UHGV virus genome: UHGV-2031204
Direction: 5' to 3' (one strand)
DNA from: a virus
Length of the DNA: 64,000 nt
The stretch's first letter is position 1; every line of letters begins with the position of its first letter. The position numbers were made by a program, and so were the translations under genes. Shown piece after piece: positions 4,771 through 52,407 of the stretch. The notes below the pieces were generated by a model. It saw nothing but the letters and a program-made list of their open reading frames with translations. It made no database searches and was not told the origin of the DNA.

Positions 4771-4774
4771 TTAT

Positions 4775-4796
4775 CAGTGAGGGGTTCCCCTCACTG
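4775..4796 (+). terminator. Stem-loop after fibre gene (CAGTGAGGGG-TTCC-CCTCACTG), no T-run
   Basis: Perfect 9-bp inverted repeat immediately 3' of the stop; weak or attenuating. Confidence 0.3.
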
Positions 4797-4825
4797 ACTC
4801 ACAAGTACGTTATAAGGTGGTTATT

Positions 4826-5608
4826 TTGTCTGTATCAGCGACTCCCGGATGGATTGGTTCTTCAGCAAAAGCTGAAGCTGGTAATGGTTGGATGTCTGGC
4901 GCGATGCGCACACTTGGTGTGCCGGTCCCAGGCTGGATGTCGCAATTGGCGGGAAAATCAAAAGAGGCTCAGTATTCGATCGGGGCTAATCACAATTACA
5001 ATAAAGATACGCTTATTAACTATTTACGTTCCATAGGCTCTACTGCTGTCGTTGTGACCATTACAGGGGATTTAGTGTCTTATAGTAGCGGGGTTCCTTG
5101 TTTAGAGTTCCCTAGCAATCTTCCAAATTCGTATATTACCCTCATCATCAATCCTGGGGTTACAGTATACGGCAGAGGAGGCAACGGCGGTTCTAACTCA
5201 CCAGGCGGTGCAGGTGGAACCGCAATACAGAACGGAATAGGAAACAGACTGCGTATAACCAACCGTGGCGCTATTGCCGGAGGCGGTGGCGGCGGTGGCG
5301 GCGGTAACAGGGGTAGACTAATATTTGGTGGTGGCGGTGGTCGCCCATTCGGTGCTGGTGGGTCTTCCTCTCATATGAGTTCCGGTGCGGCTGCTGGTAC
5401 TATTTCCGCTCCTGGTAGAGGATCTGTTGGTGAGGGGTCTCTTAGTGCATATACAGGCGGTTCGGGTGGTAATGTCGGTGCTGGTGGAGGAAGATGTAAT
5501 ACTCATGGTAACGGTACAGAATATAACGGCGGGGCAGCTGGTGCTGCTGTTACTGGTAATGCGCCAAGATGGGACGCAGTAGGTGCAATATACGGTTCAC
5601 GTGTTTAA
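4826..5608 (+). CDS. T2-type gp38-like tail-fibre tip adhesin with polyglycine motifs
   Basis: GWIGSSAKAEAGNGWMS…GANHNYNKDTLINYLR…ITITGDLVSYS…CLEFPS…GGTAIQNGIGNRLRITNRGAIAGGGGGGGGG…GGGGGRPFGAGG resembles T2/T6-type gp38 (recalled, not searched). Start taken at TTG 4826 (RBS AAGGTGG 5 nt upstream); track start GTG 4817 is possible. Confidence 0.8.
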   Translation: MSVSATPGWIGSSAKAEAGNGWMSGAMRTLGVPVPGWMSQLAGKSKEAQYSIGANHNYNKDTLINYLRSIGSTAVVVTITGDLVSYSSGVPCLEFPSNLPNSYITLIINPGVTVYGRGGNGGSNSPGGAGGTAIQNGIGNRLRITNRGAIAGGGGGGGGGNRGRLIFGGGGGRPFGAGGSSSHMSSGAAAGTISAPGRGSVGEGSLSAYTGGSGGNVGAGGGRCNTHGNGTEYNGGAAGAAVTGNAPRWDAVGAIYGSRV

Positions 5609-5625
5609 TTAAAAAAGGAGGGTAG

Positions 5626-6129
5626 ATGGGGGTAGCGTCAGGATGGGTCGGATCTTCAGCTAGGAATGAAACTGGCCAACAATGGATGAGCGCTGCGGGT
5701 AGTAAATTAGGATTGGGTAGACCTTTTATGATGAGTCAAATGGTGGGACGATCTATGGGCTGTAAAATTGCAACCGCTGCATATAGCGATTCTTTAGGTA
5801 AGAAATGGGGCGCAGTAGGACCAAGCTGGCCGTTAAACCAGAAAAATCAGGGAACCATTCAAAACGCGGGTAACTGCGGGGTGGGAACTTTAGTAGGTAT
5901 TGAGTTACAGTTAACAACGATAGTTGCCAACGCAAAGCCTACTTTAGCGGTTTACTTACAAGGAGGCAGAGCCTCTAACATTACCGTAAATTTAGGTGGT
6001 AACACCTGCGCGCTGACCTATCAGCAGGTTATTAACGGACAGCATTATTACTGGACTAATAACATCAGCGCTGCGTTCCAAAACGTGATGAAATCAACCG
6101 GTACACTGAGAGATTTCAAAATTAGTTAA
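5626..6129 (+). CDS. gp38-like paralog: same N-terminal domain, unrelated non-glycine-rich C-terminal domain
   Basis: MGVASGWVGSSARNETGQQWMSAAG aligns with the N-terminus of 4826..5608; strong RBS AAGGAGGG; C-terminal 100 aa lack polyglycine tracts. Confidence 0.65.
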   Translation: MGVASGWVGSSARNETGQQWMSAAGSKLGLGRPFMMSQMVGRSMGCKIATAAYSDSLGKKWGAVGPSWPLNQKNQGTIQNAGNCGVGTLVGIELQLTTIVANAKPTLAVYLQGGRASNITVNLGGNTCALTYQQVINGQHYYWTNNISAAFQNVMKSTGTLRDFKIS

Positions 6130-6216
6130 TTATTTTTCAAGTGGAAGCGCTTGAAATCGTAATCGGGGGGATGTTTTAAAAGACTTTCTACGTCCCCCTA
6201 AACTTAAAGGTGTGTT

Positions 6217-8151
6217 ATGATGTTGGTGCGCGATATTAAAGATTACACCGAACTAGCAACATACGCGTTAAATTCGTTGTTAACGCTTGACAAACCAGAA
6301 ATACTCGATGAATCCGTCACGATAACGGTAGACCAGGAAACGAACTATGATTACGTTGGTCAAGTTACTGGTCGTGTTTCTGTAGCTAGTCCCACTGAAT
6401 ATAAAATTGCGATGTATACCTATACAACGGGAGAGTACGCGCAAGGTGAATCAGCATTAAACGAATCGGGTGAGTTTAATTTTAAACGAACATGGCCGGG
6501 GACAAAACAATTTCGTTTAATTAGAATTGCTGATGGCAAATGGATTTCTACGTTAGAGTTCCCATTGTGCATCCGTAGTTACCATATGCCAGAAAACGCG
6601 GACCCTGAAACGATCAGGATTATGAAAGATCGGTGTTATACTTACGATCAGGCTGTTGCTGCTCTTGCATTAATGGTATACGGTCATGAAAAGGTAGAAC
6701 AGTTTGTAAAAGGTCTTTTAGCGCTGGTCAATGAAGACGGGGGCGTTAAATTCTACGTAAACCGACTTTCAGCTAAATCTTCGCGAAATTATTACCGTAT
6801 GGGTAACGTCGCGTGGGTACTTTACGCTTTAGCTTTTTATCTTGAAAAATTTCCTGCCGGAAATCTAGCGGCACAGGTTCGTGAAAAATTAACACTTTCC
6901 TTAACCTGGCTGGAAACTTACAAGGTAACGCAGGAGACAGATCGCCGCAAAGGTTTATATCTTGGTGGAAAGGGTCGTTTTGTTACTACCGAATCAGGCG
7001 AACGTGTTTTTGAAGAAGACTACGTTGCACCTTTTGCGGCTTTAGAACATCAGGTAGATATTTGGTTCCTGTTCGAATTACTAGGGCGCGTCGGTTTTGA
7101 TGCATACCAACAAAAAGCAGCGGACTTCGGTAATAGAATAGTAGAAGCTTTTTGGATGGAAGACGAAGGACGTTTTCGTCAGGGTGTGAGAGAAACAGAA
7201 GATGATAACGCAGCTGCGTTAGATCAGTCCAGTTGGGGTGGGCTATTTGCGGCCAAATTTAAACCAGAGTACGCCGAACGTTGTCACGCTTTTATGGAGA
7301 AATTTCGTTCGGAAACCTCTGAGTGTCGTGGCTACACACCATACAAAACCGAGTTTGGTTACCCTAATGCTAAAGAAGGGGTGTGGGTTGAAGGTGCCGC
7401 CGGTGTTGCATTATTCGAACGTCAGTTAGGAAATGATAAACGTGCTGTTGAGATCATTAACGACTTAGATGTTCTTTTATCAGAATACGGTTATCGTGAT
7501 TCTTGCGATGATCCTACCTATGATACGCTGCCGCCGTGGTGGTCAACCACAAACACTGCATGGGTGCTTTTAGTCTGTAAGCCAAGTAATTTTTGGCTTG
7601 TAGATAAGTCTCCTTTAACGGAGAGATATAATCCGCAGAATAAATTTTTACCAGATATTTCATTAAACTCTTTAAATCTTGTAATTTCGTTAGTGAATCA
7701 CGATTTAAAAACAGATTACACGGAGTCTGATGTTGAAATCAGCAAGATTTCACTTAGCACGGAAGAAAATCGTGACACAACAGCGATAATGGAAATAAAA
7801 CGTCCTAATAAACGGTCGTTACAGATCTATTACAACCGTTTAACCGCAGCGCGGTGGTTAAACCAGCAACCTATTCTGGTAAAGGTCACCGGTAATGGTT
7901 TTACTACTCGCGATCTGATCGACGGAATTAACGCTGTCTGTGGTAGTAATTTACAAGCCGACGATCTTACCGATAAAACATTTACCGTAGGGAGGGACGC
8001 TGTAACATTACAAGTTTCACCCAACTCGCTAGGTTATAAAGGCCAATTCTCCGTTCTGGTTTTCGGTAACGACGAAGAAGCCGCTGTAGTAAAAGACAAC
8101 GATTTAATCGTTACTGCAGATAACCGTGTCTTAACATTCGGAGGTCACTAA
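6217..8151 (+). CDS. Hypothetical 644-aa protein, possible (alpha/alpha)6-toroid glycosidase-like fold
   Basis: RBS AAAGGTG; recurring aromatic helix-end motifs (NVAWVLYALAFY, VDIWFLFELL, SSWGGLFAA, GVWVEGAAGVALF, TNTAWVLLV). Fold assignment is inference. Confidence 0.55.
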   Translation: MMLVRDIKDYTELATYALNSLLTLDKPEILDESVTITVDQETNYDYVGQVTGRVSVASPTEYKIAMYTYTTGEYAQGESALNESGEFNFKRTWPGTKQFRLIRIADGKWISTLEFPLCIRSYHMPENADPETIRIMKDRCYTYDQAVAALALMVYGHEKVEQFVKGLLALVNEDGGVKFYVNRLSAKSSRNYYRMGNVAWVLYALAFYLEKFPAGNLAAQVREKLTLSLTWLETYKVTQETDRRKGLYLGGKGRFVTTESGERVFEEDYVAPFAALEHQVDIWFLFELLGRVGFDAYQQKAADFGNRIVEAFWMEDEGRFRQGVRETEDDNAAALDQSSWGGLFAAKFKPEYAERCHAFMEKFRSETSECRGYTPYKTEFGYPNAKEGVWVEGAAGVALFERQLGNDKRAVEIINDLDVLLSEYGYRDSCDDPTYDTLPPWWSTTNTAWVLLVCKPSNFWLVDKSPLTERYNPQNKFLPDISLNSLNLVISLVNHDLKTDYTESDVEISKISLSTEENRDTTAIMEIKRPNKRSLQIYYNRLTAARWLNQQPILVKVTGNGFTTRDLIDGINAVCGSNLQADDLTDKTFTVGRDAVTLQVSPNSLGYKGQFSVLVFGNDEEAAVVKDNDLIVTADNRVLTFGGH

Positions 8152-8777: not shown

Positions 8778-8818
8778 GGTAGTAGGGGCTTAGCCCCTAC
8801 TACCTTTTTTATTTTTTC
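8778..8818 (+). terminator. Rho-independent terminator
   Basis: GGTAGTAGGGG-CTTAG-CCCCTACTACC followed by a T-run. Confidence 0.7.
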
Positions 8819-8863
8819 TCAGATATATATTACCTAGAGGAGAGTGAAATTTACGTTCACTCC
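8816..8863 (+). promoter_or_regulatory. Conserved phage promoter-like motif plus 5'-UTR hairpin (copy 1 of 4)
   Basis: TCAGATATATATTACCTAGAGG followed by hairpin GGAGAGTGAA…TTCACTCC; related copies at 13205, 45418, 49705. Confidence 0.45.
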
Positions 8864-13204: not shown

Positions 13205-13247
13205 TTTCAGATATATATTACTTAGGTGAGAGTACAAAAGCTCTCAC
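13205..13247 (+). promoter_or_regulatory. Conserved promoter-like motif plus 5'-UTR hairpin (copy 2 of 4)
   Basis: TTTCAGATATATATTACTTAGGTGAGAGTACAAAAGCTCTCAC; near-identical over ~75 bp to 49700-49776. Confidence 0.5.
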
Positions 13248-16792: not shown

Positions 16793-17641
16793 ATGTCTCT
16801 TACGTCAAAACAGAAACTGCTAAAACTCATCAACACTGAAAACAATATTGTTCCGCCATTGACCTTCAGTGATGTTGATATCGGCGAACCTACTGGTACT
16901 GGGGTTGATACCCAGGTGGTTCTGACTTCTAAACTCAAAGGCGACGAGTCTACTACTTTAACGGTGACTTACCATCGTCGTAATTTGCCCGAATACCTAA
17001 CAGGTGAGTTGGTATTCGGTAACGACGGTGTTGTAACCGCTGCAGATTTGCTTAATGCGATCAACGCAAAATACGATTTAAATATTCTGCCGTCGGATAT
17101 CGTTGATGCGAAAGTTGAAGGTAAAACCCATCAGCTTACCGCTAACGAGAAATCCTACGAGTGGTGTGGCGAAGTAACACTTACGCTACGCGATCCTATT
17201 GATCTGGCTAAACTGTTACCTGTTACTCAATTAGAAAACCTGGTAGAGTATCCGTCCACTAAGAAAGGTAACGCGGCAGTTTATTCTTATCCGATTGATT
17301 TCACCGCAGAAAAAGATTACCTTGATCCTATTACCATTAACGACACCGTCGACCTGGCCGAGTTAGCCACTAAACTGACTAACGTCGTTGATGAGAAATG
17401 GGTAAGTGTACCTAAGAACGCTGCTAATAACCTGTACGGTGCTAAGGTTATCTACGATGGCCCTACCGCAGGTTTCGAAGGTGCAAATACGAAGTACACG
17501 CGTGTGCTGGTACTCACCCTAAGCGGTATGTGTTCTAACCTGACCGGTAAACTGTTAATTCACTTTAACGGAACCGATCGTCCGAAGTCGAAGATTGAAT
17601 TAGCCAAGACTAATTCGGTCTTACCGGGATTCTTAGATTAA
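16793..17641 (+). CDS. Member of a four-paralog family of small proteins, possibly virion-associated
   Basis: 282 aa; N-terminal pattern shared with 17655, 20822, 21430. Confidence 0.55.
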   Translation: MSLTSKQKLLKLINTENNIVPPLTFSDVDIGEPTGTGVDTQVVLTSKLKGDESTTLTVTYHRRNLPEYLTGELVFGNDGVVTAADLLNAINAKYDLNILPSDIVDAKVEGKTHQLTANEKSYEWCGEVTLTLRDPIDLAKLLPVTQLENLVEYPSTKKGNAAVYSYPIDFTAEKDYLDPITINDTVDLAELATKLTNVVDEKWVSVPKNAANNLYGAKVIYDGPTAGFEGANTKYTRVLVLTLSGMCSNLTGKLLIHFNGTDRPKSKIELAKTNSVLPGFLD

Positions 17642-42698: not shown

Positions 42699-43961
42699 GT
42701 GACTACTGCTTATCAAGTGCGGCCCGACAGCGCTTTTGGCTTCTCTCGAGAGTCCCGTACCTGGGGAGCCATCGATGTCACGCAACCCTTAAATACGTTG
42801 TGTTCAGACTACCACACCTTTGAGATCGGTTTAAGTGCACTTGGTAAAGACTATACGTTAGTCAGCCAATACCATCTTGCCGAACTACAAAACCGAACAG
42901 ACACTTTACAAGATTGGTTAAATGAAAAAGCCGGAAACGTCATCCCCACTCTAAAAGCCGGATTGCCGAAACTGGAATTCAGTTGGGCGCATTACCAATC
43001 AATTAATGCCGATGTACCTGTCGAAACGTACCTGTGTCCGCCGGGGTACCACCACAGTCAAGATTTCAGCTTAGACGATGCTGATGACGTTGTCGTCGTT
43101 TGTGAGGACAAGTGGAAGGACAAATACCGTAATAGTGTACTGTACAACATTAACGGTCAATGGGTACCGCATCAGACAGATACCGTAGGTGTCCGATTAC
43201 CCGGGGCCGGTAAAATCGTACGGAGAGCCTGTACGCCTGATATCGGCTGTATGGTTTTTGGTCAGTTAGGGAATGTTAAAACTTACCCCATTGCCAACCT
43301 TACCCTAAACAAGCTCGACACTACACGTGACTATTACTCCACGTTAATGATTTCGCTGCCCGAATCTATTACGGGAAAAACGGTGGGTTTCGTCATCGGT
43401 GGACTGTTACGTTGGTTGCCTCCGGGCGGTTATTTCTCCGACCGTGCGATCATGATTTCTTTGCCGAATTTTGATCTTGCTCGGACCGTTCTAGAAACCC
43501 GTCGCTATTACGACTGGGATGCCATCGGTGTGGGGGATTTATCAACGCCTACTAATGTCCAACGCATTCGCAACCCCGAAACATTAAAGGCGCTTTTACT
43601 CCACGAGTCTTCGTTTATCTTTACGGTAGATAACCCGTATTTAGAAGAAGAGGTTGTGGGTGTATCGCATAACGCAGTTTGGGGACGTTGTTATCTCAAG
43701 GACCCTAGCGATCCTGATTCTGAAAAACCATTAGGGTACTTAAATAATCGCTTCGGGAAGACGGTGGGCTATTGGCCTACATGGGAGGAGGGTGAGTGGG
43801 TATTTAACACCACCGAATTCGACAGTCAAAACTACGTCTTTCGTGAAGCCCGGTGGTATAATCAGAAGAAGATTAACGACGCGCAAGCAATCGTCGGTCC
43901 ATTCGGTCCCTGGGAAAAAGTGTATTTAGAAATGCATCGCTTTAGAGCACGAAAAAAATAA
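42699..43961 (+). CDS. Hypothetical 420-aa protein
   Basis: GTG start; isolated plus-strand gene between minus-strand blocks. Confidence 0.5.
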   Translation: MTTAYQVRPDSAFGFSRESRTWGAIDVTQPLNTLCSDYHTFEIGLSALGKDYTLVSQYHLAELQNRTDTLQDWLNEKAGNVIPTLKAGLPKLEFSWAHYQSINADVPVETYLCPPGYHHSQDFSLDDADDVVVVCEDKWKDKYRNSVLYNINGQWVPHQTDTVGVRLPGAGKIVRRACTPDIGCMVFGQLGNVKTYPIANLTLNKLDTTRDYYSTLMISLPESITGKTVGFVIGGLLRWLPPGGYFSDRAIMISLPNFDLARTVLETRRYYDWDAIGVGDLSTPTNVQRIRNPETLKALLLHESSFIFTVDNPYLEEEVVGVSHNAVWGRCYLKDPSDPDSEKPLGYLNNRFGKTVGYWPTWEEGEWVFNTTEFDSQNYVFREARWYNQKKINDAQAIVGPFGPWEKVYLEMHRFRARKK

Positions 43962-44011: not shown

Positions 44012-44221
44012 TTAGTCTTTTTTGTAGACAATTGCGTTACCGTGCAGTTTGTTGTTGCCGGAAATACCGATAACTTTGAATGCGTCGCCGCCAATTTTTT
44101 CAGCTTCAGCAGCCAGCTTACCCGTTACATGATCAACGGTGTCGCCGAAAGCGCTAACGTTACCGATTTTCTTAAACTCTTCTGGAATATGCTCAGCAGA
44201 AGAGAACTCTTTAATAGACAT
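44012..44221 (-). CDS. DUF1471 (YhcN/BhsA-family)-like small protein without signal peptide
   Basis: …IGNVSAFGDTVDHVTGKLAAEAEKIGGDAFKVIGISGNNKLHGNAIVYKKD; ATG 44221 after RBS GGAGAG. Confidence 0.55.
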   Translation of the reverse strand: MSIKEFSSAEHIPEEFKKIGNVSAFGDTVDHVTGKLAAEAEKIGGDAFKVIGISGNNKLHGNAIVYKKD

Positions 44222-44427
44222 AACAGCTCTCCATTTCAAAAGGAAGGTGGTCTAAGACCGACGTGTGTTACAACCGAAGCATAAGATAGCTCCTCCCCGT
44301 AGGGAGGAGTAGAGTGCGCGAAAAAAGTGGCCTGCTTAACTAAACGATGGGTTTAAGAAAAGTGTTGATAAAAAGCTTTACCAACGTCAGGTCACAATAT
44401 ATAAACACAACGTAAGAAAAAGGGGAA

Positions 44428-45393
44428 TTATTGCGGAGGTGATGTCGGACCATGTTTACCTTGGTGAATGTGAACGCTAAAGGTAATACCGGAAATAATG
44501 GCATCTTTAACCGTAAAGACACCCACGCCTTCACCCGTACCACCGTATTTGAAGTTCTTAGCGACTTCCAGATTACCGGTGAACATCGCTTCCTTCCCTT
44601 CTTGTTTAAAGTTCGGCGTTTTGAACGTTGTCGAACTGCCCGCTTCTGTTAACCAGGTTTGTGTTTTAAACGTAACGGAATTCGCTGCTTCCGTATTGCG
44701 GACTTCACATTTTTCATTAATCGTTTTCGTTTCCAGGTTAATAGAACGCTTTGAATAAATGAACGCATCTTCTTTGTTGATGTTCACTTTTGAAAGCATC
44801 GCATTCTCAAACCCGAGATCATCTTCAACCGAGTTAATGTAATACTTGTTTCCTTTATGGTCAACGCACTGCCACGTACCGTTTGCATTATCAAACTGAA
44901 ACAACCACGCCGCTTTCTCGCCATTCACCATACTCGTTCTTAGCGTGATATGTTTGTCAATCGTCGAAACGTTCAACACATACGCATTGGACAAGTCATC
45001 CGCCATTTGGTTTTCAGGGTCAGCCGACCACGCATAAACCGCATCTTCTAATCGCTTAACGTTAGCGAAGTTCAGATCAATCCAAAAATAAATATCGGTT
45101 TTCCCCAAACGTAACAAGATAACGTAGTCTTCTCGTTTAACGTCAGGGGAATTAATTCGGTTGGAGTTAAACTTCCACCACTTTGCTGTTATCGTGTTAC
45201 CCGTCTTAATGGTTAGGTTATCTGTTGCACCAGACGTTTCATGCGTCTTTTCAGTTGCTGAAGAAACAGATTGTACCACGGTAGGGTTAGCAAAGTTAGT
45301 TTCAATTGGTATCACTTTTACCCGATCTGTACCACGGGGTTTGTCTTCCGCGACGATACCAATTGAGAAAAAATCAACACTGGATTTCTCCAT
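44428..45393 (-). CDS. Putative central tail spike (P2 gpV-like) with C-terminal HxH apex
   Basis: C-terminus …ITFSVHIHQGKHGPTSPPQ resembles the His-rich apex of P2 gpV (…LHTHKHPGDSGGTTGSPL). Confidence 0.5.
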   Translation of the reverse strand: MEKSSVDFFSIGIVAEDKPRGTDRVKVIPIETNFANPTVVQSVSSATEKTHETSGATDNLTIKTGNTITAKWWKFNSNRINSPDVKREDYVILLRLGKTDIYFWIDLNFANVKRLEDAVYAWSADPENQMADDLSNAYVLNVSTIDKHITLRTSMVNGEKAAWLFQFDNANGTWQCVDHKGNKYYINSVEDDLGFENAMLSKVNINKEDAFIYSKRSINLETKTINEKCEVRNTEAANSVTFKTQTWLTEAGSSTTFKTPNFKQEGKEAMFTGNLEVAKNFKYGGTGEGVGVFTVKDAIISGITFSVHIHQGKHGPTSPPQ

Positions 45394-45417: not shown

Positions 45418-45473
45418 GATTTCAGATATATTTTACTTAAGTGAATAGGGACTGAAGTACCAGTTCAGTCCCT
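45418..45473 (+). promoter_or_regulatory. Conserved promoter-like motif plus hairpin (copy 3 of 4)
   Basis: GATTTCAGATATATTTTACTTAAGTGAA then hairpin GGGACTGAA-GTACCA-GTTCAGTCCC. Confidence 0.45.
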
Positions 45474-45714
45474 ACGGACACGTTACCCTTTTAGTACCTT
45501 TCGTTAAAGGTTACTAAAAAATTACATTATGTCCCTTTATTCTGCTACTCGGGATACCGGTAGGGGATAGGGGGCATTATGTATACGGATATAAATAGCG
45601 GAGGTATACGGAGTATACCGACATACTCTTCCCAGAGGAACGTAGTGACTTCCTTATACCTCTTTTACAATCCATAATAATAGCCTTCCCTTCATTGGGA
45701 TTAGCGAGTAAATC

Positions 45715-46449
45715 ATGAAAGAATTATTAGACGATATCTTTACCAATACCAGTTTAGAACTTTCTTCTACGGTGGTTAACGAACTAATAAAACAATCGCA
45801 ACCTGCTAAGTTAGGCGCTGCCAGGGTAGTTAACCCTAAAGATTATCTAGGCTGCGATATCATAGGTGGTACGATCGATGAGTACGCAATTGGTATTTAC
45901 CCCAACTGGGTCTTCTTTGTTCTTAATACCGAAACCGGTGTCATGTTAACCTACACGATGAGTAGTGATGCCGAACACGAAGTTGTAGCGGAACATATTC
46001 GCCACATCGCCAGCACGCCTATCTTTTCCGACGTTACGTTTATTGGGGGAAGCACTATGCTGACGTTATTCTCTTACTTCCCACTGTTTAGACATGGGGT
46101 AGGGTTAATCAAGCATGTAGAAAACCTTCCCGATAACGTAGAGTTATCACTGCTTGGCCCCGGCATCGATCTTTATCCATTAAAAGATAACGGTAAGTTA
46201 TACGGTTTACGTATCTATGTTTCTTGGTTAAAGGGATACCGCGTTATTGAACTGATTGCATCAGACTTAACAAAACAGATCCCAGAAGTAGAAACGATTT
46301 CTAAAGCCACCCACCTGGTTGAGATTAACCCAGACGATCCGTTTTTACAGTACCACAAAGAAATTGCCCTTCGTGGTATCGCGGCCGTAAAAGGGTGGGG
46401 CTGTGCTGAGATTACGAAGGGCTATCTGCTTCTAATTAAAACCGCGTAA
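45715..46449 (+). CDS. Paralog-family protein A (conserved C-terminal GW…LLF module)
   Basis: 244 aa; N-terminal MKELLDDIFTNT resembles 48282 ORF. Confidence 0.55.
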   Translation: MKELLDDIFTNTSLELSSTVVNELIKQSQPAKLGAARVVNPKDYLGCDIIGGTIDEYAIGIYPNWVFFVLNTETGVMLTYTMSSDAEHEVVAEHIRHIASTPIFSDVTFIGGSTMLTLFSYFPLFRHGVGLIKHVENLPDNVELSLLGPGIDLYPLKDNGKLYGLRIYVSWLKGYRVIELIASDLTKQIPEVETISKATHLVEINPDDPFLQYHKEIALRGIAAVKGWGCAEITKGYLLLIKTA

Positions 46450-46478
46450 TTAAGAAAACCGAAAAAGGAGAATATACC

Positions 46479-47033
46479 ATGTTTCAAACTGAACTGAAAA
46501 ATGAAATTATCCAAACCCTTGAAAAGGGCGTAGGCGAACATTTCTTTGTCCGTCCTTATACCGTACTGACCAATACCATTATTCAGCCAGGTGCGATGAT
46601 AGTAGGGGTGAGTGTACAAGCTGTGGAGGAAACCCCACTGCGTCGCAACATCACACGTAAAACCCATATCCCGTTTAGAACAGGTTTTACAGATTACTTT
46701 CAGAGCTTACTGAAAGATAGCGTTTGGAAAACAGGTAGCTTCTTCCACGAAGGGAAGACTTCCACGCTGGTTTATAAAGAGAACACCAAGTATCTGGTCG
46801 ATTTTCTCTTAGCGCGTCAGTATGCTTTCTTTCCAACCCCTACTGACTGCACCACAGACAACCCAGGTAAGTTATTAAACCAAAGCGAAGCCGAGGCACT
46901 CTTTACAAGACTTCGGAATGAGCAGTGCGATGTTGACGACTGGGAAACATTGATCGCGGTCGCTAAAGCCCACGGTTGGTATACCGTACGTAAACTCGGT
47001 CAGCAGTTGTTGTTCTTAGCTTACCCTGCTTAA
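46479..47033 (+). CDS. Paralog-family protein B
   Basis: 184 aa; C-terminal AKAHGWYTVRKLGQQLLFLAYPA. Confidence 0.55.
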   Translation: MFQTELKNEIIQTLEKGVGEHFFVRPYTVLTNTIIQPGAMIVGVSVQAVEETPLRRNITRKTHIPFRTGFTDYFQSLLKDSVWKTGSFFHEGKTSTLVYKENTKYLVDFLLARQYAFFPTPTDCTTDNPGKLLNQSEAEALFTRLRNEQCDVDDWETLIAVAKAHGWYTVRKLGQQLLFLAYPA

Positions 47034-47062
47034 GTAACGAAAAAACCTAAAGGAGAGTAAAA

Positions 47063-48214
47063 ATGCGAAATATTATTTCTAAACCAGGACATGTCAAAAT
47101 CCTAAAAGAACTGATGGACAGATGCTATAATCGGACTTGGTCACTACCAAGCTTAACCATCGAGTCTTCATTACAACGTGAGTTGTTTGGTTATAACTTG
47201 GGCTGTTGTGTACTTACTGAATACAATGAGATTATCGCGCCTGTCGATGTCTGTACTTACGATGAAGAAATTGAAGGTTACAAGTTCGCGGTTTACACAA
47301 ATTGTGGACTAAATTACCGTAAACTCGTTGTTAGGGAAAAGAGTAGCAGCCGGAAGATTATGTTTAAGGTCTTCCCAAGTGGTAAAGTCAGTAATTTATG
47401 TTTTCAGCTTGAGAAAGTGCCCTTTCACGGTGCGGACATTTTAACTAAACCGGAGCTCGCGTTATTAAGCGGGTTAATTGGCTTTGAAGCAAAAACCATC
47501 AAAGTTGAGCAGGAACTTACACGAAACGATTTCGGGTCAACTTGGTACGAAAGTTTCTTCCGCTACGAAATGTTAAGTGATAAAGCTATCAAACTCACTT
47601 ACCGTTCTACCGACGACATCGTTTACCACATTTTAATTAGCGGCGAACCCCACCAGATTATTGAAGTCGAAGGAGAAAAATCCGTGCGTACCTTAAAAGA
47701 TGAATTAACTGATTTTGTTAACAAAATTGATAACGTGGGTATCAGTGAATTATTATTCCCGATTCAACATCCAGAGTTGCTTGACGAGAAATGTGAAAAC
47801 ATGATTATGGCGGTGCATTTACTTCCTGACCATCTTGCTATCTACCGTACACTTTCTAAGAACCAACTTAAAGTGTGGTGTCTGTTAAAAGGTCTTTTAA
47901 CAGAGGCGGGGTGGTCGTGTAGTGTAGATGTTAACTGTGAAGGAGTTGCGTTCTTCATCACAATAGGCAATCGTAGTTTTTCTGTCGATTTACCTACTCG
48001 CAGCTATTACGATTTCTTCCCGACCGCAGAAGGACGTACTGAAAAAGAACCCGCATTACTGCTCAGTGCTGAGGAGTCCAATGCGTTAATGGCGAAACTG
48101 AAGGCGAAAGACGAGAAGCTGGATGCTTTACATCTACCTATAATCGGGAAAGACTACGGTTGGGCTGACGTGCAAAAATACGGCAGTCAGCTGTTGTTTG
48201 TTGCTGACCTCTAA
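47063..48214 (+). CDS. Paralog-family protein C
   Basis: 383 aa; C-terminal GKDYGWADVQKYGSQLLFVADL. Confidence 0.55.
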   Translation: MRNIISKPGHVKILKELMDRCYNRTWSLPSLTIESSLQRELFGYNLGCCVLTEYNEIIAPVDVCTYDEEIEGYKFAVYTNCGLNYRKLVVREKSSSRKIMFKVFPSGKVSNLCFQLEKVPFHGADILTKPELALLSGLIGFEAKTIKVEQELTRNDFGSTWYESFFRYEMLSDKAIKLTYRSTDDIVYHILISGEPHQIIEVEGEKSVRTLKDELTDFVNKIDNVGISELLFPIQHPELLDEKCENMIMAVHLLPDHLAIYRTLSKNQLKVWCLLKGLLTEAGWSCSVDVNCEGVAFFITIGNRSFSVDLPTRSYYDFFPTAEGRTEKEPALLLSAEESNALMAKLKAKDEKLDALHLPIIGKDYGWADVQKYGSQLLFVADL

Positions 48215-48281
48215 TAAGTGAAAATACACTTTCTCTAACTGCCGCGCTTTAGTCGCGGCTTTTGTTAAGAAGGAAATAGAA

Positions 48282-49055
48282 ATGAAAGTCCATTTAGACG
48301 ACATCTTTAAAACCGAACCGTATATGATCGAAGGCCCGCTATCATCACTACTATTTGCCGATAGATTAGATCGTACGCTGCAATTACAATCGGTCGAAAC
48401 TGCACCCGTTGACGATGTAGAGCGTTACGAGCGCATCAACTATACGCGTGGTGAGTATCGTCGCTATAAGCCAAATTCACTAAGCATCAAGCTTTGGAAT
48501 GTGAGCACAGGTAAAGTATTAACTTATCGCGCTGTTGGTAGTTATTACATTCAACAAGCCAAAGAGTGGTTAGAAAAAGTTAAAGAACTGAACTTCGATC
48601 TACTGAGCAAAAAACTGCGCGATCATAACGCCAGTTTGCCGATACGTAATTATTTCTCCACGATTGAAAATAGTCGTTGTTTCGTTTCACGTGAAACCAC
48701 GATATTACCTGGGGATGATGTTCAGACAACACTAAAAGATGTGGTTGTGAAGAAAATCTTTCATGAATCTGAACACGTTGGATTTCGTATCTATTTAACG
48801 CATAAGAGACCATTTACCGTGATTCACGTTGTTACCGCACCCGAAGGCTCAGCGATTATTCGTGAACTTCCTGATGCTCGAGACCGTTGCCCTAATGAGC
48901 CGCTTTATTTAATGTCAGGAACAAAATCAACCGCGTTGATGTCCCGTTACAGCATGTTAGATGTTGTTGACGCTGCTATGAAACTAGGTTGGAAAGAAGT
49001 GCAGCAACATGGTAAACAATTGCTGTTTATTGCCGATGTAAAACTTAATCAATAG
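48282..49055 (+). CDS. Paralog-family protein D
   Basis: 257 aa; C-terminal AMKLGWKEVQQHGKQLLFIADV. Confidence 0.55.
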   Translation: MKVHLDDIFKTEPYMIEGPLSSLLFADRLDRTLQLQSVETAPVDDVERYERINYTRGEYRRYKPNSLSIKLWNVSTGKVLTYRAVGSYYIQQAKEWLEKVKELNFDLLSKKLRDHNASLPIRNYFSTIENSRCFVSRETTILPGDDVQTTLKDVVVKKIFHESEHVGFRIYLTHKRPFTVIHVVTAPEGSAIIRELPDARDRCPNEPLYLMSGTKSTALMSRYSMLDVVDAAMKLGWKEVQQHGKQLLFIADVKLNQ

Positions 49056-49067
49056 TGAGGTGGTACC

Positions 49068-49646
49068 GTGTACCGATTAATAGAAATGCGAAAAGACGTT
49101 TGGTTGGAAAACCTCGTCGATGGGGAGCTTGAGGGAATAGAGCTTTCCTTACCAGAAAGAGCGGACACGGTATTGGTCTTTCTGATAAAACAGGCAGCGA
49201 AGGAACCGGTAGGAATCTTCAGCGTGGACTATAAAGACCCACGAGGGATTCATTTACGGAACATTTGCAGTGGTTTAGAAAGCTTACCGGCTAATCCGTT
49301 CTTAAACTACGCAAAACGTAAACTCCAGCCAGGGCAACATCTCTGGGTAGTTCTAGCGCCTGATACACGCATTATACGTGACGACCAGACTGCGTTTGTC
49401 CAAGCAACGAAAGTCAGTTTGTACAATCCTAATGCGGATCGTACCGATATGCCGTTTACAATCACCTTAGAAGACGATGGAACGCAAGAGGGTATTGAGG
49501 CAATTACGGAATTAGTAAACTCTTATCCGGTAGCATCTATTGAGTTAGAAAACCCAAACCGATTACCGTTGGGTGATTTACTCGAATGGATTGAGCTGAA
49601 TACCGAGTTCCTCATTAACTCCCGGCAGTACCGGTTCGATGTATAA
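49068..49646 (+). CDS. Hypothetical protein
   Basis: 192-aa ORF, GTG start after RBS GAGGTGG. Confidence 0.45.
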   Translation: MYRLIEMRKDVWLENLVDGELEGIELSLPERADTVLVFLIKQAAKEPVGIFSVDYKDPRGIHLRNICSGLESLPANPFLNYAKRKLQPGQHLWVVLAPDTRIIRDDQTAFVQATKVSLYNPNADRTDMPFTITLEDDGTQEGIEAITELVNSYPVASIELENPNRLPLGDLLEWIELNTEFLINSRQYRFDV

Positions 49647-49650
49647 CATC

Positions 49651-49683
49651 GGTGGGGGTAAACCCCCACCTTTTATTTTTTTG
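49651..49683 (+). terminator. Rho-independent terminator
   Basis: GGTGGGGG-TAAA-CCCCCACC plus T-run. Confidence 0.7.
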
Positions 49684-49704
49684 TTCGTTAATATTAAAAA
49701 TAAT

Positions 49705-49747
49705 TTCAGATATATATTACTTAAGTGAGAGTACAAAAGCACTCACT
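49705..49747 (+). promoter_or_regulatory. Conserved promoter-like motif plus 5'-UTR hairpin (copy 4 of 4)
   Basis: TTTCAGATATATATTACTTAAGTGAGAGTACAAAAGCACTCAC; near-duplicate of 13205-13247. Confidence 0.5.
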
Positions 49748-49776: not shown

Positions 49777-50148
49777 ATGAAAAACGAATTATTCAAAGAC
49801 CCGTTTGTTGTATTAATGATCGTTACTCGCGCTGCCACTAACCCAGAAAACCTGAAACGTTTACTTACTAACGAAGCATACCTTATCGAACAGCGTGACG
49901 CGCAGTTAGCCAAACCACACGCTGAAGGCCAGGCGAAAGACCTTATCTCTATTTTCCGTAACGAAGAATGGCGTAAAAACAACGAGCTGTCCGACAACCT
50001 GACGGTTGCAATTGCAAAACTCTTGACACTGTTCAATCTTGACAAAGACATTAACCAAAGCCTTTCTACAGAAGAGCGTCTGGAAATGATAAGAGGTATC
50101 GGAGATAGTTATACACAGATTAAAGCATTACCCAACACAGTTATTTAA
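49777..50148 (+). CDS. Hypothetical protein
   Basis: 123-aa ORF; RBS TAGGAGAA. Confidence 0.5.
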   Translation: MKNELFKDPFVVLMIVTRAATNPENLKRLLTNEAYLIEQRDAQLAKPHAEGQAKDLISIFRNEEWRKNNELSDNLTVAIAKLLTLFNLDKDINQSLSTEERLEMIRGIGDSYTQIKALPNTVI

Positions 50149-50194: not shown

Positions 50195-50656
50195 ATGAAA
50201 ACCTTTATCACTTTCTTAATAACTATTTTAACTTTCGGCCTCAATACTGCACACGCCGCTATCAACAGCTGGGAACAAATACAAAACCCTGGCCAGGCAG
50301 TTTACGAAATTGAAGACACCGCCGGAAACGGACTGTCTATCAACTGTGACACTGAAACTGCGAATCGCAAATTTTACGGTCGCATGGTTTGGTATTACGG
50401 GGAACCCGTAGGTGCAACTAACGCTGAAGATAACACGATGGATATTGTCGTAAACGGCAAGACCTATAACATCCCTACCGTGGACGGTAGTGACAAAGCA
50501 GAACACGCTTGGGTTGCTTTCGTTAATGCTATCGGTAATGCCAAAACTTTCAGTGTGAGTATCAATGGTAACGATGCCGCTAACTTTACCGTAGAAGGCG
50601 AACGTCTGTCTGAAACTTTCTTCCAGAACTGTGGACACACCCGTCCTAACAAATAA
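50195..50656 (+). CDS. Small secreted protein (signal peptide, 2 Cys)
   Basis: MKTFITFLITILTFGLNTAHA-AINSW; RBS GAAGGAG. Confidence 0.6.
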   Translation: MKTFITFLITILTFGLNTAHAAINSWEQIQNPGQAVYEIEDTAGNGLSINCDTETANRKFYGRMVWYYGEPVGATNAEDNTMDIVVNGKTYNIPTVDGSDKAEHAWVAFVNAIGNAKTFSVSINGNDAANFTVEGERLSETFFQNCGHTRPNK

Positions 50657-50684
50657 GTATTAATCTTTTTTAGAGTGCGTGAAA

Positions 50685-51071
50685 ATGAATATCAGAACTA
50701 TACTTTATACTATCATTATTTTCTGTGCGGTCGGAATTACTGGCACTTATGCTTTCGGTGATTCAGATGTCCGTTATTACGAACCGGCTCCTGACTCACC
50801 GATTATCAACCCGGATGAGACGCCTACGTTAATGCGCAGTTTCGGTAAACTGCAAGTTTATCGTTTAGTGCGTGGTGAAACCTGTACGGGTTTACTCATT
50901 GCTGACACCCGTGCACAAGTCTACCAACGTCTAACCGATATCGCCTGCGAACAACCAAAAGTAATGTCAGTTAGTATCCATCCGCTATCAGTTGGTAACT
51001 ATACCGCTGTGGACTTCTTTCACAACGCCGAATTAATCGGACGCGTTACCTTAAATCGTCCTGCCGAATAA
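50685..51071 (+). CDS. Small secreted protein (signal peptide, 2 Cys)
   Basis: MNIRTILYTIIIFCAVGITGTYA-FG; track start GTG 50679. Confidence 0.55.
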   Translation: MNIRTILYTIIIFCAVGITGTYAFGDSDVRYYEPAPDSPIINPDETPTLMRSFGKLQVYRLVRGETCTGLLIADTRAQVYQRLTDIACEQPKVMSVSIHPLSVGNYTAVDFFHNAELIGRVTLNRPAE

Positions 51072-51089
51072 TCTAAAGGAGTAGTTACA

Positions 51090-51575
51090 ATGAAACGTTT
51101 ACATACACTGATGTTCTTTCTGGTTTTCTTGTTTATCGGTGCCACGCCAACTGTAGATGCGGCCTCCGTAGACGAATTGCTTACCTGCGATGGAAACGCT
51201 TGGGAAGGTCAGCCAAATGCGTGCCCAAACATCAACGACTTGTACGATACCGATAAGTCGTTTAAAGCCGTTGTTGATAAAACACTAGACCCCGTAGGGC
51301 TGGATGGTATGTTCGGCTCTAAAGGTTACATGGATGGCCCTGGCGGTAACATGTATCCGGTAAACATCAACAACAAAATCTGGATTGAAAGCGGCGGTTG
51401 TAAAGCTAACGCTTGTGGTTGGGAATACATCGTAACGCTATACAACCCACACACTAAGAAACTCGTCGGCTATTACTACAACATCGACCCCGGTTACCTG
51501 ATTTGGTTCGGTGATATCGGTGTTGCCGAATTCGCTTACCTGGTTAAGAAATACGTAGAACAATCTAAATACTAA
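51090..51575 (+). CDS. Small secreted protein (signal peptide, 4 Cys)
   Basis: MKRLHTLMFFLVFLFIGATPTVDA; RBS AAAGGAG. Confidence 0.6.
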   Translation: MKRLHTLMFFLVFLFIGATPTVDAASVDELLTCDGNAWEGQPNACPNINDLYDTDKSFKAVVDKTLDPVGLDGMFGSKGYMDGPGGNMYPVNINNKIWIESGGCKANACGWEYIVTLYNPHTKKLVGYYYNIDPGYLIWFGDIGVAEFAYLVKKYVEQSKY

Positions 51576-51586
51576 GGACTTTTATC

Positions 51587-51997
51587 ATGAAAACTATCAT
51601 TAATACTCTTCTCATTGCAATGGCTGTTCTGTTCTCTGTCAACGCTACAGCAAAAACAATACAGTTGCCAGACAATATTAAGTACGTCAATAGCACCGAT
51701 GATTTCTATTGTACGGAAATTGACGGCTTGTACTGTCAGGCAAAGAGCCTGTTTAAATACAAAGGTAGCAGATACGTATTCATCGTTGAGCAAGGTGGTG
51801 CCTGGTGCTACGACAGCCCAATGTCCGTACTCAACCTCGAAACGTGGAAGGCTCAGCGTCTCGAATACAACGACAAACGTCTGTGCTCTGGTAATAACAA
51901 ACCATTCTTCGAAGTCGTAGATGGTGTGCCAATGGTAGGGATATTAGACACTTCGGAAAAACCTATCGTTGTAGCTATGGATAAACTTAAAATTTAA
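51587..51997 (+). CDS. Small secreted protein (signal peptide, 4 Cys)
   Basis: MKTIINTLLIAMAVLFSVNATA. Confidence 0.6.
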   Translation: MKTIINTLLIAMAVLFSVNATAKTIQLPDNIKYVNSTDDFYCTEIDGLYCQAKSLFKYKGSRYVFIVEQGGAWCYDSPMSVLNLETWKAQRLEYNDKRLCSGNNKPFFEVVDGVPMVGILDTSEKPIVVAMDKLKI

Positions 51998-52007
51998 GGA
52001 GTAACTC

Positions 52008-52397
52008 ATGCGTCTCGTCTGCGTTTTAGCATTCTTCTTCTCCCTGAGTGTAGCAGCATCTACCCAAGTTAACGATTTACTGCTAACCCCAAACAACAAT
52101 ACCGATTATCAGTACAATCCTCCGGGGTTTGAAGTTTGCGAAGTCGGTGAAACAATCTGCCAAGAAGTCGGCGCAGACGGGCGCTATATTCTGGTAAAAG
52201 CTGACGGTGGCACAATGTGTCCCGCAGGTTATTACTTTCTGCTCGATTCCGTCGCAAGAGAGGTTCTTCCTATCACCACGAAAACGTGCGACCCTACCGT
52301 TGTCTTAACTCTCGCTAAAAGTAAATCTCGCGACCGTTATCTGATCGTTATCGAAGAACGGGGCAAGATGGCGGGTGCTATTGAATTAGATCATTGA
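52008..52397 (+). CDS. Small secreted protein (signal peptide, 4 Cys)
   Basis: MRLVCVLAFFFSLSVAAS; RBS TAAGGAG. Confidence 0.6.
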   Translation: MRLVCVLAFFFSLSVAASTQVNDLLLTPNNNTDYQYNPPGFEVCEVGETICQEVGADGRYILVKADGGTMCPAGYYFLLDSVAREVLPITTKTCDPTVVLTLAKSKSRDRYLIVIEERGKMAGAIELDH

Positions 52398-52407
52398 GTG
52401 TAGTCTT

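Follow-up and report, generated by a model that had tools for sequence, protein, structure and literature searches.

A putative operon of four diverged paralogs with a common C-terminal mini-domain in an SPN3US-like jumbo phage

We analysed a stretch of 64,000 nucleotides (hereafter the window) of the virus genome UHGV-2031204, in which positions 45715-49055 hold a tandem array of four genes, here called g244, g184, g383 and g257 after the lengths of their products. Judged by alignment and gene order, the array is best described as a conserved operon of four anciently duplicated genes, whose products have in common a C-terminal mini-domain of ~65 amino acids (hereafter the module) that appears degenerate in g244. 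The array genes are real and under purifying selection, and they evolve 5-10x faster at the protein level than the genes that flank them. A first-pass annotation, made from the sequence alone, had placed four consecutive genes here, and all four were recovered as + strand open reading frames (ORFs) at exactly those coordinates. The gene that follows, g192, closes the transcription unit and is not a paralog of the array genes. The genes and the modules within them are as follows.

45715-46449, + strand: g244, 244 amino acids (ORF listing)
46354-46440, + strand: degenerate module of g244, amino acids 214-242, with only alpha2-beta2-beta3 recognisable
46479-47033, + strand: g184, 184 amino acids (ORF listing)
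46827-47030, + strand: module of g184, ~amino acids 117-184 (BLASTP, profile search)
47063-48214, + strand: g383, 383 amino acids (ORF listing)
48011-48211, + strand: module of g383, ~amino acids 317-383 (BLASTP, profile search)
48282-49055, + strand: g257, 257 amino acids (ORF listing)
48858-49052, + strand: module of g257, amino acids 193-257, nearest to the family consensus (BLASTP, profile search)
49068-49646, + strand: g192, 192 amino acids, last gene of the array transcription unit, matching phrog_20879 (E=3e-33)

The C-terminal module and its family

BLASTP comparison of the array proteins revealed significant C-terminal similarity between g184 and g383 (E=3.5e-12 over 108 amino acids), g383 and g257 (E=1.6e-10 over 65 amino acids), and g184 and g257 (E=1.7e-5). 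A hidden Markov model (HMM) of the module, searched against all six-frame ORFs of the window, returned exactly these three proteins with E=4e-34 to 4e-29 and no further copy; with a 34-sequence profile, the values were 6e-21 for g184, 8e-20 for g383 and 2e-22 for g257. The first-pass annotation had assigned all four proteins a conserved C-terminal stretch of ~35 amino acids, and had made its significance on alignment the point on which the claim turned. That significance holds for three genes, and the conserved region is longer than proposed, at ~65-70 amino acids including an upstream arm, PD..DR[ST].N[DE]P.YLMS. The full signature reads [LIVF]PD..DR[ST].N[DE]P.YLMS[AS]..V..L, followed by a linker that varies from 31 to 64 amino acids, and then A...GW..V...G.QLLF[IV][AS].

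The fourth protein, g244, appears to retain only a degenerate half of the module, and was missed both by BLASTP against its paralogs and by the module HMM. In profile-profile comparisons with hhalign, the g244 and g257 classes aligned over their full length (P=4e-5 for 3 sequences and P=1.1e-4 for 81), and the C-terminal 29 residues of g244 matched the alpha2-beta2-beta3 half of the module without a shift in register (P from 1.2e-5 to 1.9e-4). The counterpart of the PD..DR..NEP arm is degenerate in g244, reading INPDDPFLQY. These alignments indicate that g244 is probably a diverged full-length paralog of g257 and a degenerate member of the family.

Upstream of the module, the N-terminal regions fall into at least eight types that were mutually undetectable in an all-against-all hhalign comparison with the module removed. 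The only related pairs were the N-terminal regions of g244 and g257, and two Phobos-type groups with each other. The g244-g257 alignment is collinear over 172 columns (P=2.6e-4, second best of 55 comparisons), so that the MK..LDDIF motif pointed out earlier in these two genes is the start of a homology spanning their whole N-terminal regions. The g184 protein consists of a short N-terminal region, a unit common to g383 and the C-terminal module, and g383 of a long N-terminal region and the module; the additional unit common to both, of ~45 amino acids, lies directly before the module. A derivation of the N-terminal regions from degenerate module repeats was also considered and rejected as unsupported; the best hhalign match covered 15 columns at P=0.009 and fell short of significance.

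HMMER was run exhaustively over 1.84 billion representative proteins and gave 43 matches to the module at E<=0.001, two of which are repeat-protein false positives. The true matches are proteins of 72-423 amino acids with the module at the extreme C-terminus, several of them amounting to little beyond a stand-alone module (72-100 amino acids); in PhiEaH1 gp105, the module is N-terminal instead. A word-index homolog search with a 3-sequence module profile yielded only 17 candidates and was of little use. By tblastn, members were found only in SPN3US-, CR5-, Derbicus-, phiEaH2-, Asesino- and PhiEaH1-type jumbo phages of Enterobacterales and in one Shewanella jumbo phage, and on these searches the module is rare and confined to the SPN3US-like jumbo-phage group. 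A search of BFVD likewise matched only uncharacterised proteins of the same group, with accession series that suggest several module members per phage.

Three named relatives are SPN3US gp175 (SPN3US_0175 / YP_009153469), gp176 of Erwinia phage Phobos and Asesino gp195, which carry the same C-terminal module (35-42% identity over 60-72 amino acids by tblastn; module HMM E=1e-23 to 1e-25) and differ from the window genes in having unrelated N-terminal regions. Searches against PHROGs matched g184, g383 and g257 over the C-terminal part only (for g257, phrog_26772 with E=9e-10 and phrog_33648 with E=1e-6), and PHROGs 26772, 33648, 24489 and 18480 are all annotated as of unknown function. On these matches, the three proteins are assignable to an uncharacterised SPN3US gp175-like family (PHROGs 26772/33648/24489/18480). 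No informative match was obtained in Pfam or NCBIfam for the four array proteins, 10 family members or 34 isolated modules, and the best E in a profile search of PDB sequences with the module alignment was 0.48. In the literature, all mentions of a gp175 refer to the phiKZ protease or the PhiPA3 RecA, and none to SPN3US gp175. The module is a previously undescribed domain, and its family has no Pfam entry, solved structure or literature; the first-pass annotation had rightly not recognised it, and we found no PDB sequence relative and no convincing fold relative.

Structure prediction had been suggested in the first-pass annotation as a check, and the g257 module was modelled with AlphaFold2 from a 34-sequence alignment, giving a confident prediction with a predicted local distance difference test score (pLDDT) of 93.6 and a predicted template modelling score of 0.79. 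The predicted fold comprises an N-terminal arm followed by beta1-alpha1-alpha2-beta2-beta3. Full-length g383 was modelled poorly (pLDDT 59.8), with alpha/beta units in its N-terminal part, and a fold search with this model returned only noise.

The predicted topology bears on an unlikely alternative, that the array proteins are nucleic-acid-binding regulators whose module is winged-helix-, MerR/Xis- or R3H-like and acts, early in infection, on phage or host transcription or on RNA fate, with the N-terminal regions as effector or oligomerisation domains. From general knowledge of folds, the beta-alpha-alpha-beta-beta order resembles wing-containing helix-turn-helix domains; isolated, weak Pfam matches of single members point to the winged-helix domains of TBPIP/Hop2 (E=0.006) and Mnd1 (E=0.08); and the unusually conserved, structured leader of the operon (described below) could be a binding target. 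Comparison with solved winged-helix and helix-turn-helix domains gave no fold match for the module, which contains no compact helix-turn-helix. The linker between alpha1 and alpha2, at ~31 to 64 amino acids, is unlike a tight helix-turn-helix, and its variability is incompatible with one. Fold scores against R3H, Smr and winged-helix proteins (RepE, Stn1) were marginal and fell below generic methyltransferase substructure matches, the signature motifs of these families not having been specifically searched for. By sequence count, the g257 module is also approximately neutral in charge.

Genomic setting and allele reassortment

A search of a 50,697-record phage collection found no nucleotide match to the window apart from one patch of 35-61 nt, common to Erwinia phages phiEaH2 and Stratton and Salmonella phages STsAS and SPAsTU. 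At the protein level, the window is collinear with SPN3US (Seoulvirus), Phobos (Derbicusvirus) and Asesino (Erskinevirus). Relatives of the window occur frequently as contigs of ~220-227 kb, both in IMG/VR and in isolate assemblies of Salmonella, E. coli and Shigella. The window belongs to an undescribed SPN3US-like jumbo phage of Salmonella, E. coli and Shigella, of the nucleus-forming type, and its clade suggests a widespread, undescribed genus that may persist in isolates. A 2026 review lists formation of a phage nucleus as experimentally established for SPN3US and Asesino (PMC13282480).

The common gene order of these phages runs from huge virion proteins (- strand) through a gp171 homolog, a small YdgH/BhsA-like gene and a P2-V-like baseplate gene (- strand) to the module gene or genes, which are followed by a phrog_20879-type gene, small genes and an SbcC/SMC-like gene. 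In the window, the genes before the array are the following.

42699-43961: gp171 homolog, 420 amino acids, 77% identity with SPN3US gp171
44012-44239, - strand: YdgH/BhsA-like gene (PF07338/DUF1471), between the tail and baseplate genes, kept in SPN3US, Phobos and Asesino
44428-45393, - strand: P2-V-like baseplate gene (profile match)

Members of the YdgH/BhsA family are normally bacterial periplasmic stress proteins. SPN3US gp171 is an essential tail-associated protein (PMC5105663). The array lies divergent from the baseplate gene and upstream of the phrog_20879-type and SbcC/SMC-like genes, and the module genes of SPN3US, Phobos and Asesino occupy the same slot, where they likewise point away from the baseplate gene and precede a phrog_20879-type gene. 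Each of these phages has a single module gene there (SPN3US gp175, 412 amino acids; Phobos gp176, 319 amino acids; Asesino gp195, 223 amino acids), whereas the window has four, and the array is an expansion of a slot that holds one gene in all three. The g192 product is 31% identical to SPN3US gp177, and its gene is kept next to module genes in related phages.

The window was compared with eight related loci (L003-L006 and L014-L017), giving nine genomes in all. Seven of the eight loci carry all four array genes; the L003/L004 lineage lacks g244 and has three genes. Amino-acid identities between the window and its relatives are as follows.

Flanking tail genes: 87-97%
g244: 44-69%, or gene absent
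g184: 47-78%
g383: 42-72%
g257: 78-92%

Between genomes whose flanks are 87-97% identical, the first three array genes thus drop to 42-48% amino-acid identity; g257 is the best-conserved member and g244 the most polymorphic. A sliding comparison with 150-nt windows revealed sharp breakpoints, some of them intragenic. In the comparison with L005, for example, identity is 91-95% over the first 600 nt of g383 and 53-63% over the next stretch, which places a recombination breakpoint near nt 47650. Two allele types of g184, ~45% identical to each other, are distributed across the genomes, and with the two allele types of g383 they occur in all four possible combinations among the nine genomes, indicating cassette reassortment by recombination. 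Public data extend this diversity, with 84 clusters of g244 at the 90% level (47-98% identity) and 17 homolog clusters of g383 (42-96% identity). The description of the locus as a diversified paralog array was, if anything, too cautious.

Ratios of nonsynonymous to synonymous substitution (dN/dS) were 0.13-0.37 for the array genes (g244, 0.20-0.32; g184, 0.14-0.28; g257, 0.13-0.15) and 0.02-0.06 for the flanking tail genes, and in most comparisons the module was more constrained than the N-terminal regions. Within the array, there are no DNA-level repeats between paralogs, and blastn between the segments that encode the modules gave no meaningful match. Recent duplication and gene conversion between paralogs were rejected on this ground; the duplications are therefore old, and each paralog has been kept as its own orthologous lineage.

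The selection data speak to whether the array genes might be dispensable, fast-drifting ORFan cargo, with a C-terminus shared through common ancestry only. Such an explanation draws on the lack of a known function, the loss of g244 in one lineage, the weak Shine-Dalgarno sequence of g244 in the window, and the many non-essential genes of jumbo phages (PMC13282480). It has a slim chance of being correct, given that all four genes are under purifying selection, that 8 of 9 genomes retain the gene order and the four lineages despite saturated synonymous divergence, and that conservation of the module extends over phages of different genera, among them Salmonella, Erwinia and Shewanella phages.

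The position of the array next to the baseplate gene, the gp171 homolog and virion proteins of 1400-1700 amino acids raises a different explanation, in which its products are tail- or host-range-associated accessory factors, for example non-virion assembly chaperones or adaptors for the adjacent tail and baseplate proteins that co-diversify with receptor-binding parts. Mosaic, cassette-like variation is typical of host-range loci, and the variation of the array would fit one; chaperones would also be missing from virions, as SPN3US gp175 is (see below). We nevertheless regard such a role as very unlikely. The array is divergent from the tail genes and has the promoter class of orphan small-gene operons; the adjacent structural genes remain 83-97% conserved while the array alleles swap, without co-variation; and the tail-fibre genes of the window lie ~37 kb away (148-8151). 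A conserved C-terminus joined to a variable N-terminus is, from general knowledge, the reverse of the usual fibre or chaperone pattern.

Promoter-like motif, leader and operon signals

Inspection of the region upstream of g244 revealed an AT-rich promoter-like motif, a stem-loop and a conserved leader, and hairpins were found further downstream.

45420-45444, + strand: promoter-like motif TTTCAGATATATTTTACTTAAGTGA, 25 nt, AT-rich, heading the array operon 270 nt upstream of g244
45448-45472, + strand: stem-loop GGGACTGAAG-tacca-GTTCAGTCCC, directly after the motif (RNA fold)
45511-45660, + strand: non-coding leader of ~150 nt upstream of g244, nearly invariant and structured
48241-48259, + strand: GC-rich hairpin with T-run between g383 and g257 (terminator scan)
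49651-49670, + strand: strong terminator-like hairpin GGTGGGGG-taaa-CCCCCACC with T-run, closing the operon after g192; the next motif copy follows at 49704

The motif has the form TTTCAGATATAT(A/T)TTACTTAAGTGA and occurs in three near-exact copies in the window (13205-13229, 45420-45444 and 49704-49728), against none expected by chance; a weaker fourth copy lies at 8817-8841. Copies are found upstream of small-gene operons and always on the + strand. Each of the three near-exact copies is followed on its 3' side by a hairpin, and at 13205 and 49704 then by a Shine-Dalgarno sequence and ATG. The sites at 13205 and 49704 have ~100 nt in common, including the 5' hairpin and the Shine-Dalgarno sequence, and the copy at 49704 lies inside the patch that matches phiEaH2/Stratton and STsAS/SPAsTU DNA. 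The motif core, TCAGATATAT[AT]TTAC, is in the same position before the array in 8 related genomes. It is also found directly upstream of the module gene of Phobos, gp176, and in SPN3US and Asesino it precedes other operons of small genes. The core was seen to be conserved in SPN3US, Phobos, Asesino and phiEaH2.

Reviews describe, for every jumbo phage that encodes its own RNA polymerase (RNAP), a conserved AT-rich motif that lies ahead of presumed early operons, with its centre near -10 (PMC7598289), and wherever this has been tested, it is an early promoter of the virion RNAP (PMC7598289; phiKZ data, PMC8244752). By analogy, the motif described here is probably the early virion-RNAP promoter of the SPN3US-like phage group, and it is because the reviewed motif had this function in every test that we infer early transcription of the array.

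The stem-loop at 45448-45472 is probably the 5' hairpin of the transcript, as suggested by a compensatory change in relatives (GGGAC..GTCCC to GGGGC..GCCCC). The leader at 45511-45660 shows ~100% identity across 4 genomes, in which the nucleotide divergence of neighbouring genes is 5-60%, and a 37-nt tag from it is found exactly in 4 more viral contigs of ~107-225 kb. RNA folding of 45445-45714 gave a minimum free energy of -93.5 kcal/mol (z=-5.1). Searches found no Rfam match in the whole window and no blastn match of the leader in the phage collection. The leader may act as a regulatory RNA in cis, as a small RNA, or as an anchor for the recombinational exchange of cassettes. A decayed homolog of SPN3US gp174 was also considered for the 270-nt leader and rejected, as no tblastn match was found. 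In relatives, the leader contains a mini-ORF of 25 codons (MSTEKKSGLDEVIELFKRYNPAIPR) that has AGGAG as its Shine-Dalgarno sequence, located at ~7150-7240 in L003 and at equivalent sites in L005 and L006 (alignment columns 101-198); the window lacks it through a 96-nt deletion between 45494 and 45497.

Shine-Dalgarno sequences are strong for g184, g383 and g257; that of g244 is weak in the window and reads AGGAG in relatives. The hairpin at 48241-48259 is a possible partial terminator or RNA-stability element. From the positions of the promoter, Shine-Dalgarno and hairpin elements, the unit would therefore run in the order promoter, leader, g244, g184, g383, partial stop, g257, g192, terminator.

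Possible functions of the array and neighbouring genes

The SPN3US virion mass-spectrometry table contains gp167-171, 173 and 193 and does not contain gp175 (PMC5105663 supplement); the same source lists gp175 counterparts in PhiEaH2 and CR5 and none in phiKZ. The family is therefore non-structural in the one phage that has been measured. None of the four array proteins matched a structural PHROG or Pfam family, SPN3US being the source of the virion evidence. No signal peptide or transmembrane segment was visible on inspection of their sequences, from which we infer that the proteins are cytoplasmic and soluble. Their charges and isoelectric points are mixed and unremarkable, giving no support to DNA mimicry, as a sign of which they had been checked. 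Searches of Pfam-A, NCBIfam and PHROGs with the four proteins and 10 family members gave no match to an anti-defence or host-takeover family, no dedicated anti-defence HMM or PADLOC search having been made.

The first-pass annotation had read the locus as a typical early-region array of host-takeover or anti-defence factors. Given the non-virion SPN3US homolog, the fast evolution and the modular architecture, this functional reading is plausible. We tentatively favour, at somewhat below an even chance, a combined mechanism in which the module-bearing proteins would be modular host-takeover or anti-defence adaptors. In this scheme, the operon would be transcribed early from a virion-RNAP-type promoter and its products would be soluble, non-virion proteins. 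The conserved C-terminal domain would dock one invariant partner, either a phage component or a conserved host component, and the variable N-terminal regions would supply specificity for variable host targets. Diversity would be kept by recombinational exchange of allelic cassettes between co-circulating phages.

Several observations weigh against the adaptor mechanism. Expression timing rests on analogy of the motif, and no transcriptome of an SPN3US-like phage was found in the literature. As to the early region proposed in the first-pass annotation, the promoter-like motif ahead of the array agrees with it, and the location does not: the array lies beside divergent tail and baseplate genes, and so is not in an obvious, classical early block. 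The dN/dS ratios are below 1 everywhere, so that positive selection is not demonstrated, and divergence is too saturated for site tests. The good conservation of g257 means that not every member is diversifying. Finally, the existence of stand-alone modules implies that the module has a function of its own, which fits a binding or inhibitory domain and not a mere tag.

A more novel reading, which we consider distinctly unlikely as formulated, would make the module a previously unrecognised docking domain, definable by sequence and specific to enterobacterial nucleus-forming jumbo phages, that tethers interchangeable 'warhead' regions to an invariant hub, the array being a recombining arsenal for counter-defence or host takeover. 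The hub could be a phage structure (nuclear shell, import machinery or early-infection vesicle) or an essential complex of the host, and stand-alone modules would act as competitors or regulators of the same hub. The module might instead serve as a targeting domain, or 'zip code', that delivers cargo to the nucleus shell, import machinery or early-infection vesicle and does not engage a host factor. Its confinement to the group that includes SPN3US and Asesino, both experimentally nucleus-forming (PMC13282480), its presence as a conserved terminal domain on at least eight unrelated N-terminal regions, and its tighter constraint in most comparisons would all suit such a signal. Modules of 72-100 amino acids that carry no cargo, and the N-terminal module of PhiEaH1 gp105, fit it poorly. 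The module is also absent from phiKZ-type nucleus-forming phages and therefore is no general chimallivirus signal. We judge a targeting role to be very unlikely.

In organisation, the array resembles modular and polymorphic effectors, such as the C-terminal-domain cargo of the type IX secretion system, polymorphic toxins, and the T4 internal proteins with a shared capsid-targeting sequence. The likeness lies in a conserved terminal domain on unrelated regions, multi-copy arrays and recombinational shuffling, and is an analogy of working principle only. There is no relationship in sequence or fold, the conserved end of the array proteins is C-terminal, and the SPN3US homolog is neither secreted nor packaged. 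A second likeness is to hypervariable early accessory and anti-defence clusters of lytic phages, examples of which are the early-region anti-restriction genes and the anti-CBASS (cyclic-oligonucleotide-based antiphage signalling system) genes of T-even and T7-like phages. Here the common features are small to mid-size, non-structural, fast-evolving genes, an early-type promoter, and polymorphism in both presence and allele among close relatives; the array differs in having no homology to described anti-defence families in Pfam, NCBIfam or PHROGs.

No function is known for most genes of nucleus-forming jumbo phages, and there are few sequence-defined handles for finding the proteins with which these phages interact with the host. 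The module is compact and confidently modelled, has a sharp signature and could be deposited as a new domain family. The contrast between one gene in SPN3US, Phobos and Asesino and four reassorting genes in the window and its relatives amounts to a natural experiment, for which public assemblies of Salmonella, E. coli and Shigella supply dozens of alleles. SPN3US is tractable through its amber mutants and virion proteomics, and gp175 is directly testable. If the module is a docking domain for a conserved hub, effector regions could be discovered systematically in this phage group; if it is not, a well-delimited family of unknown function remains.

Side observations were made on other genes of the window. 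A gene of phrog_27024, a family of unknown function (49777-50148, 123 amino acids), is polymorphic in its presence: the window and L003/L004 have it, and L005, L006 and L014-L017 lack it. Positions 50195-52400 hold a run of small genes (153, 130, 161 and 136 amino acids) whose products have signal-peptide-like N-termini. The homolog of the 153-amino-acid protein in relatives is annotated as Pfam YfjT (PF27224), and the YfjT-like gene is duplicated in L006; the run may be a periplasmic or superinfection-exclusion cluster behind the next promoter. At the other end of the window, 148-4770 encodes a mosaic tail-fibre protein of 1540 amino acids that matches >50 tail-fibre PHROGs, and 6217-8151 a fibre protein of 644 amino acids, the C-terminal part of which matches the 'virion structural protein' family phrog_2935/1037. 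The same family is also matched by a gene of 282 amino acids at 16793-17641.

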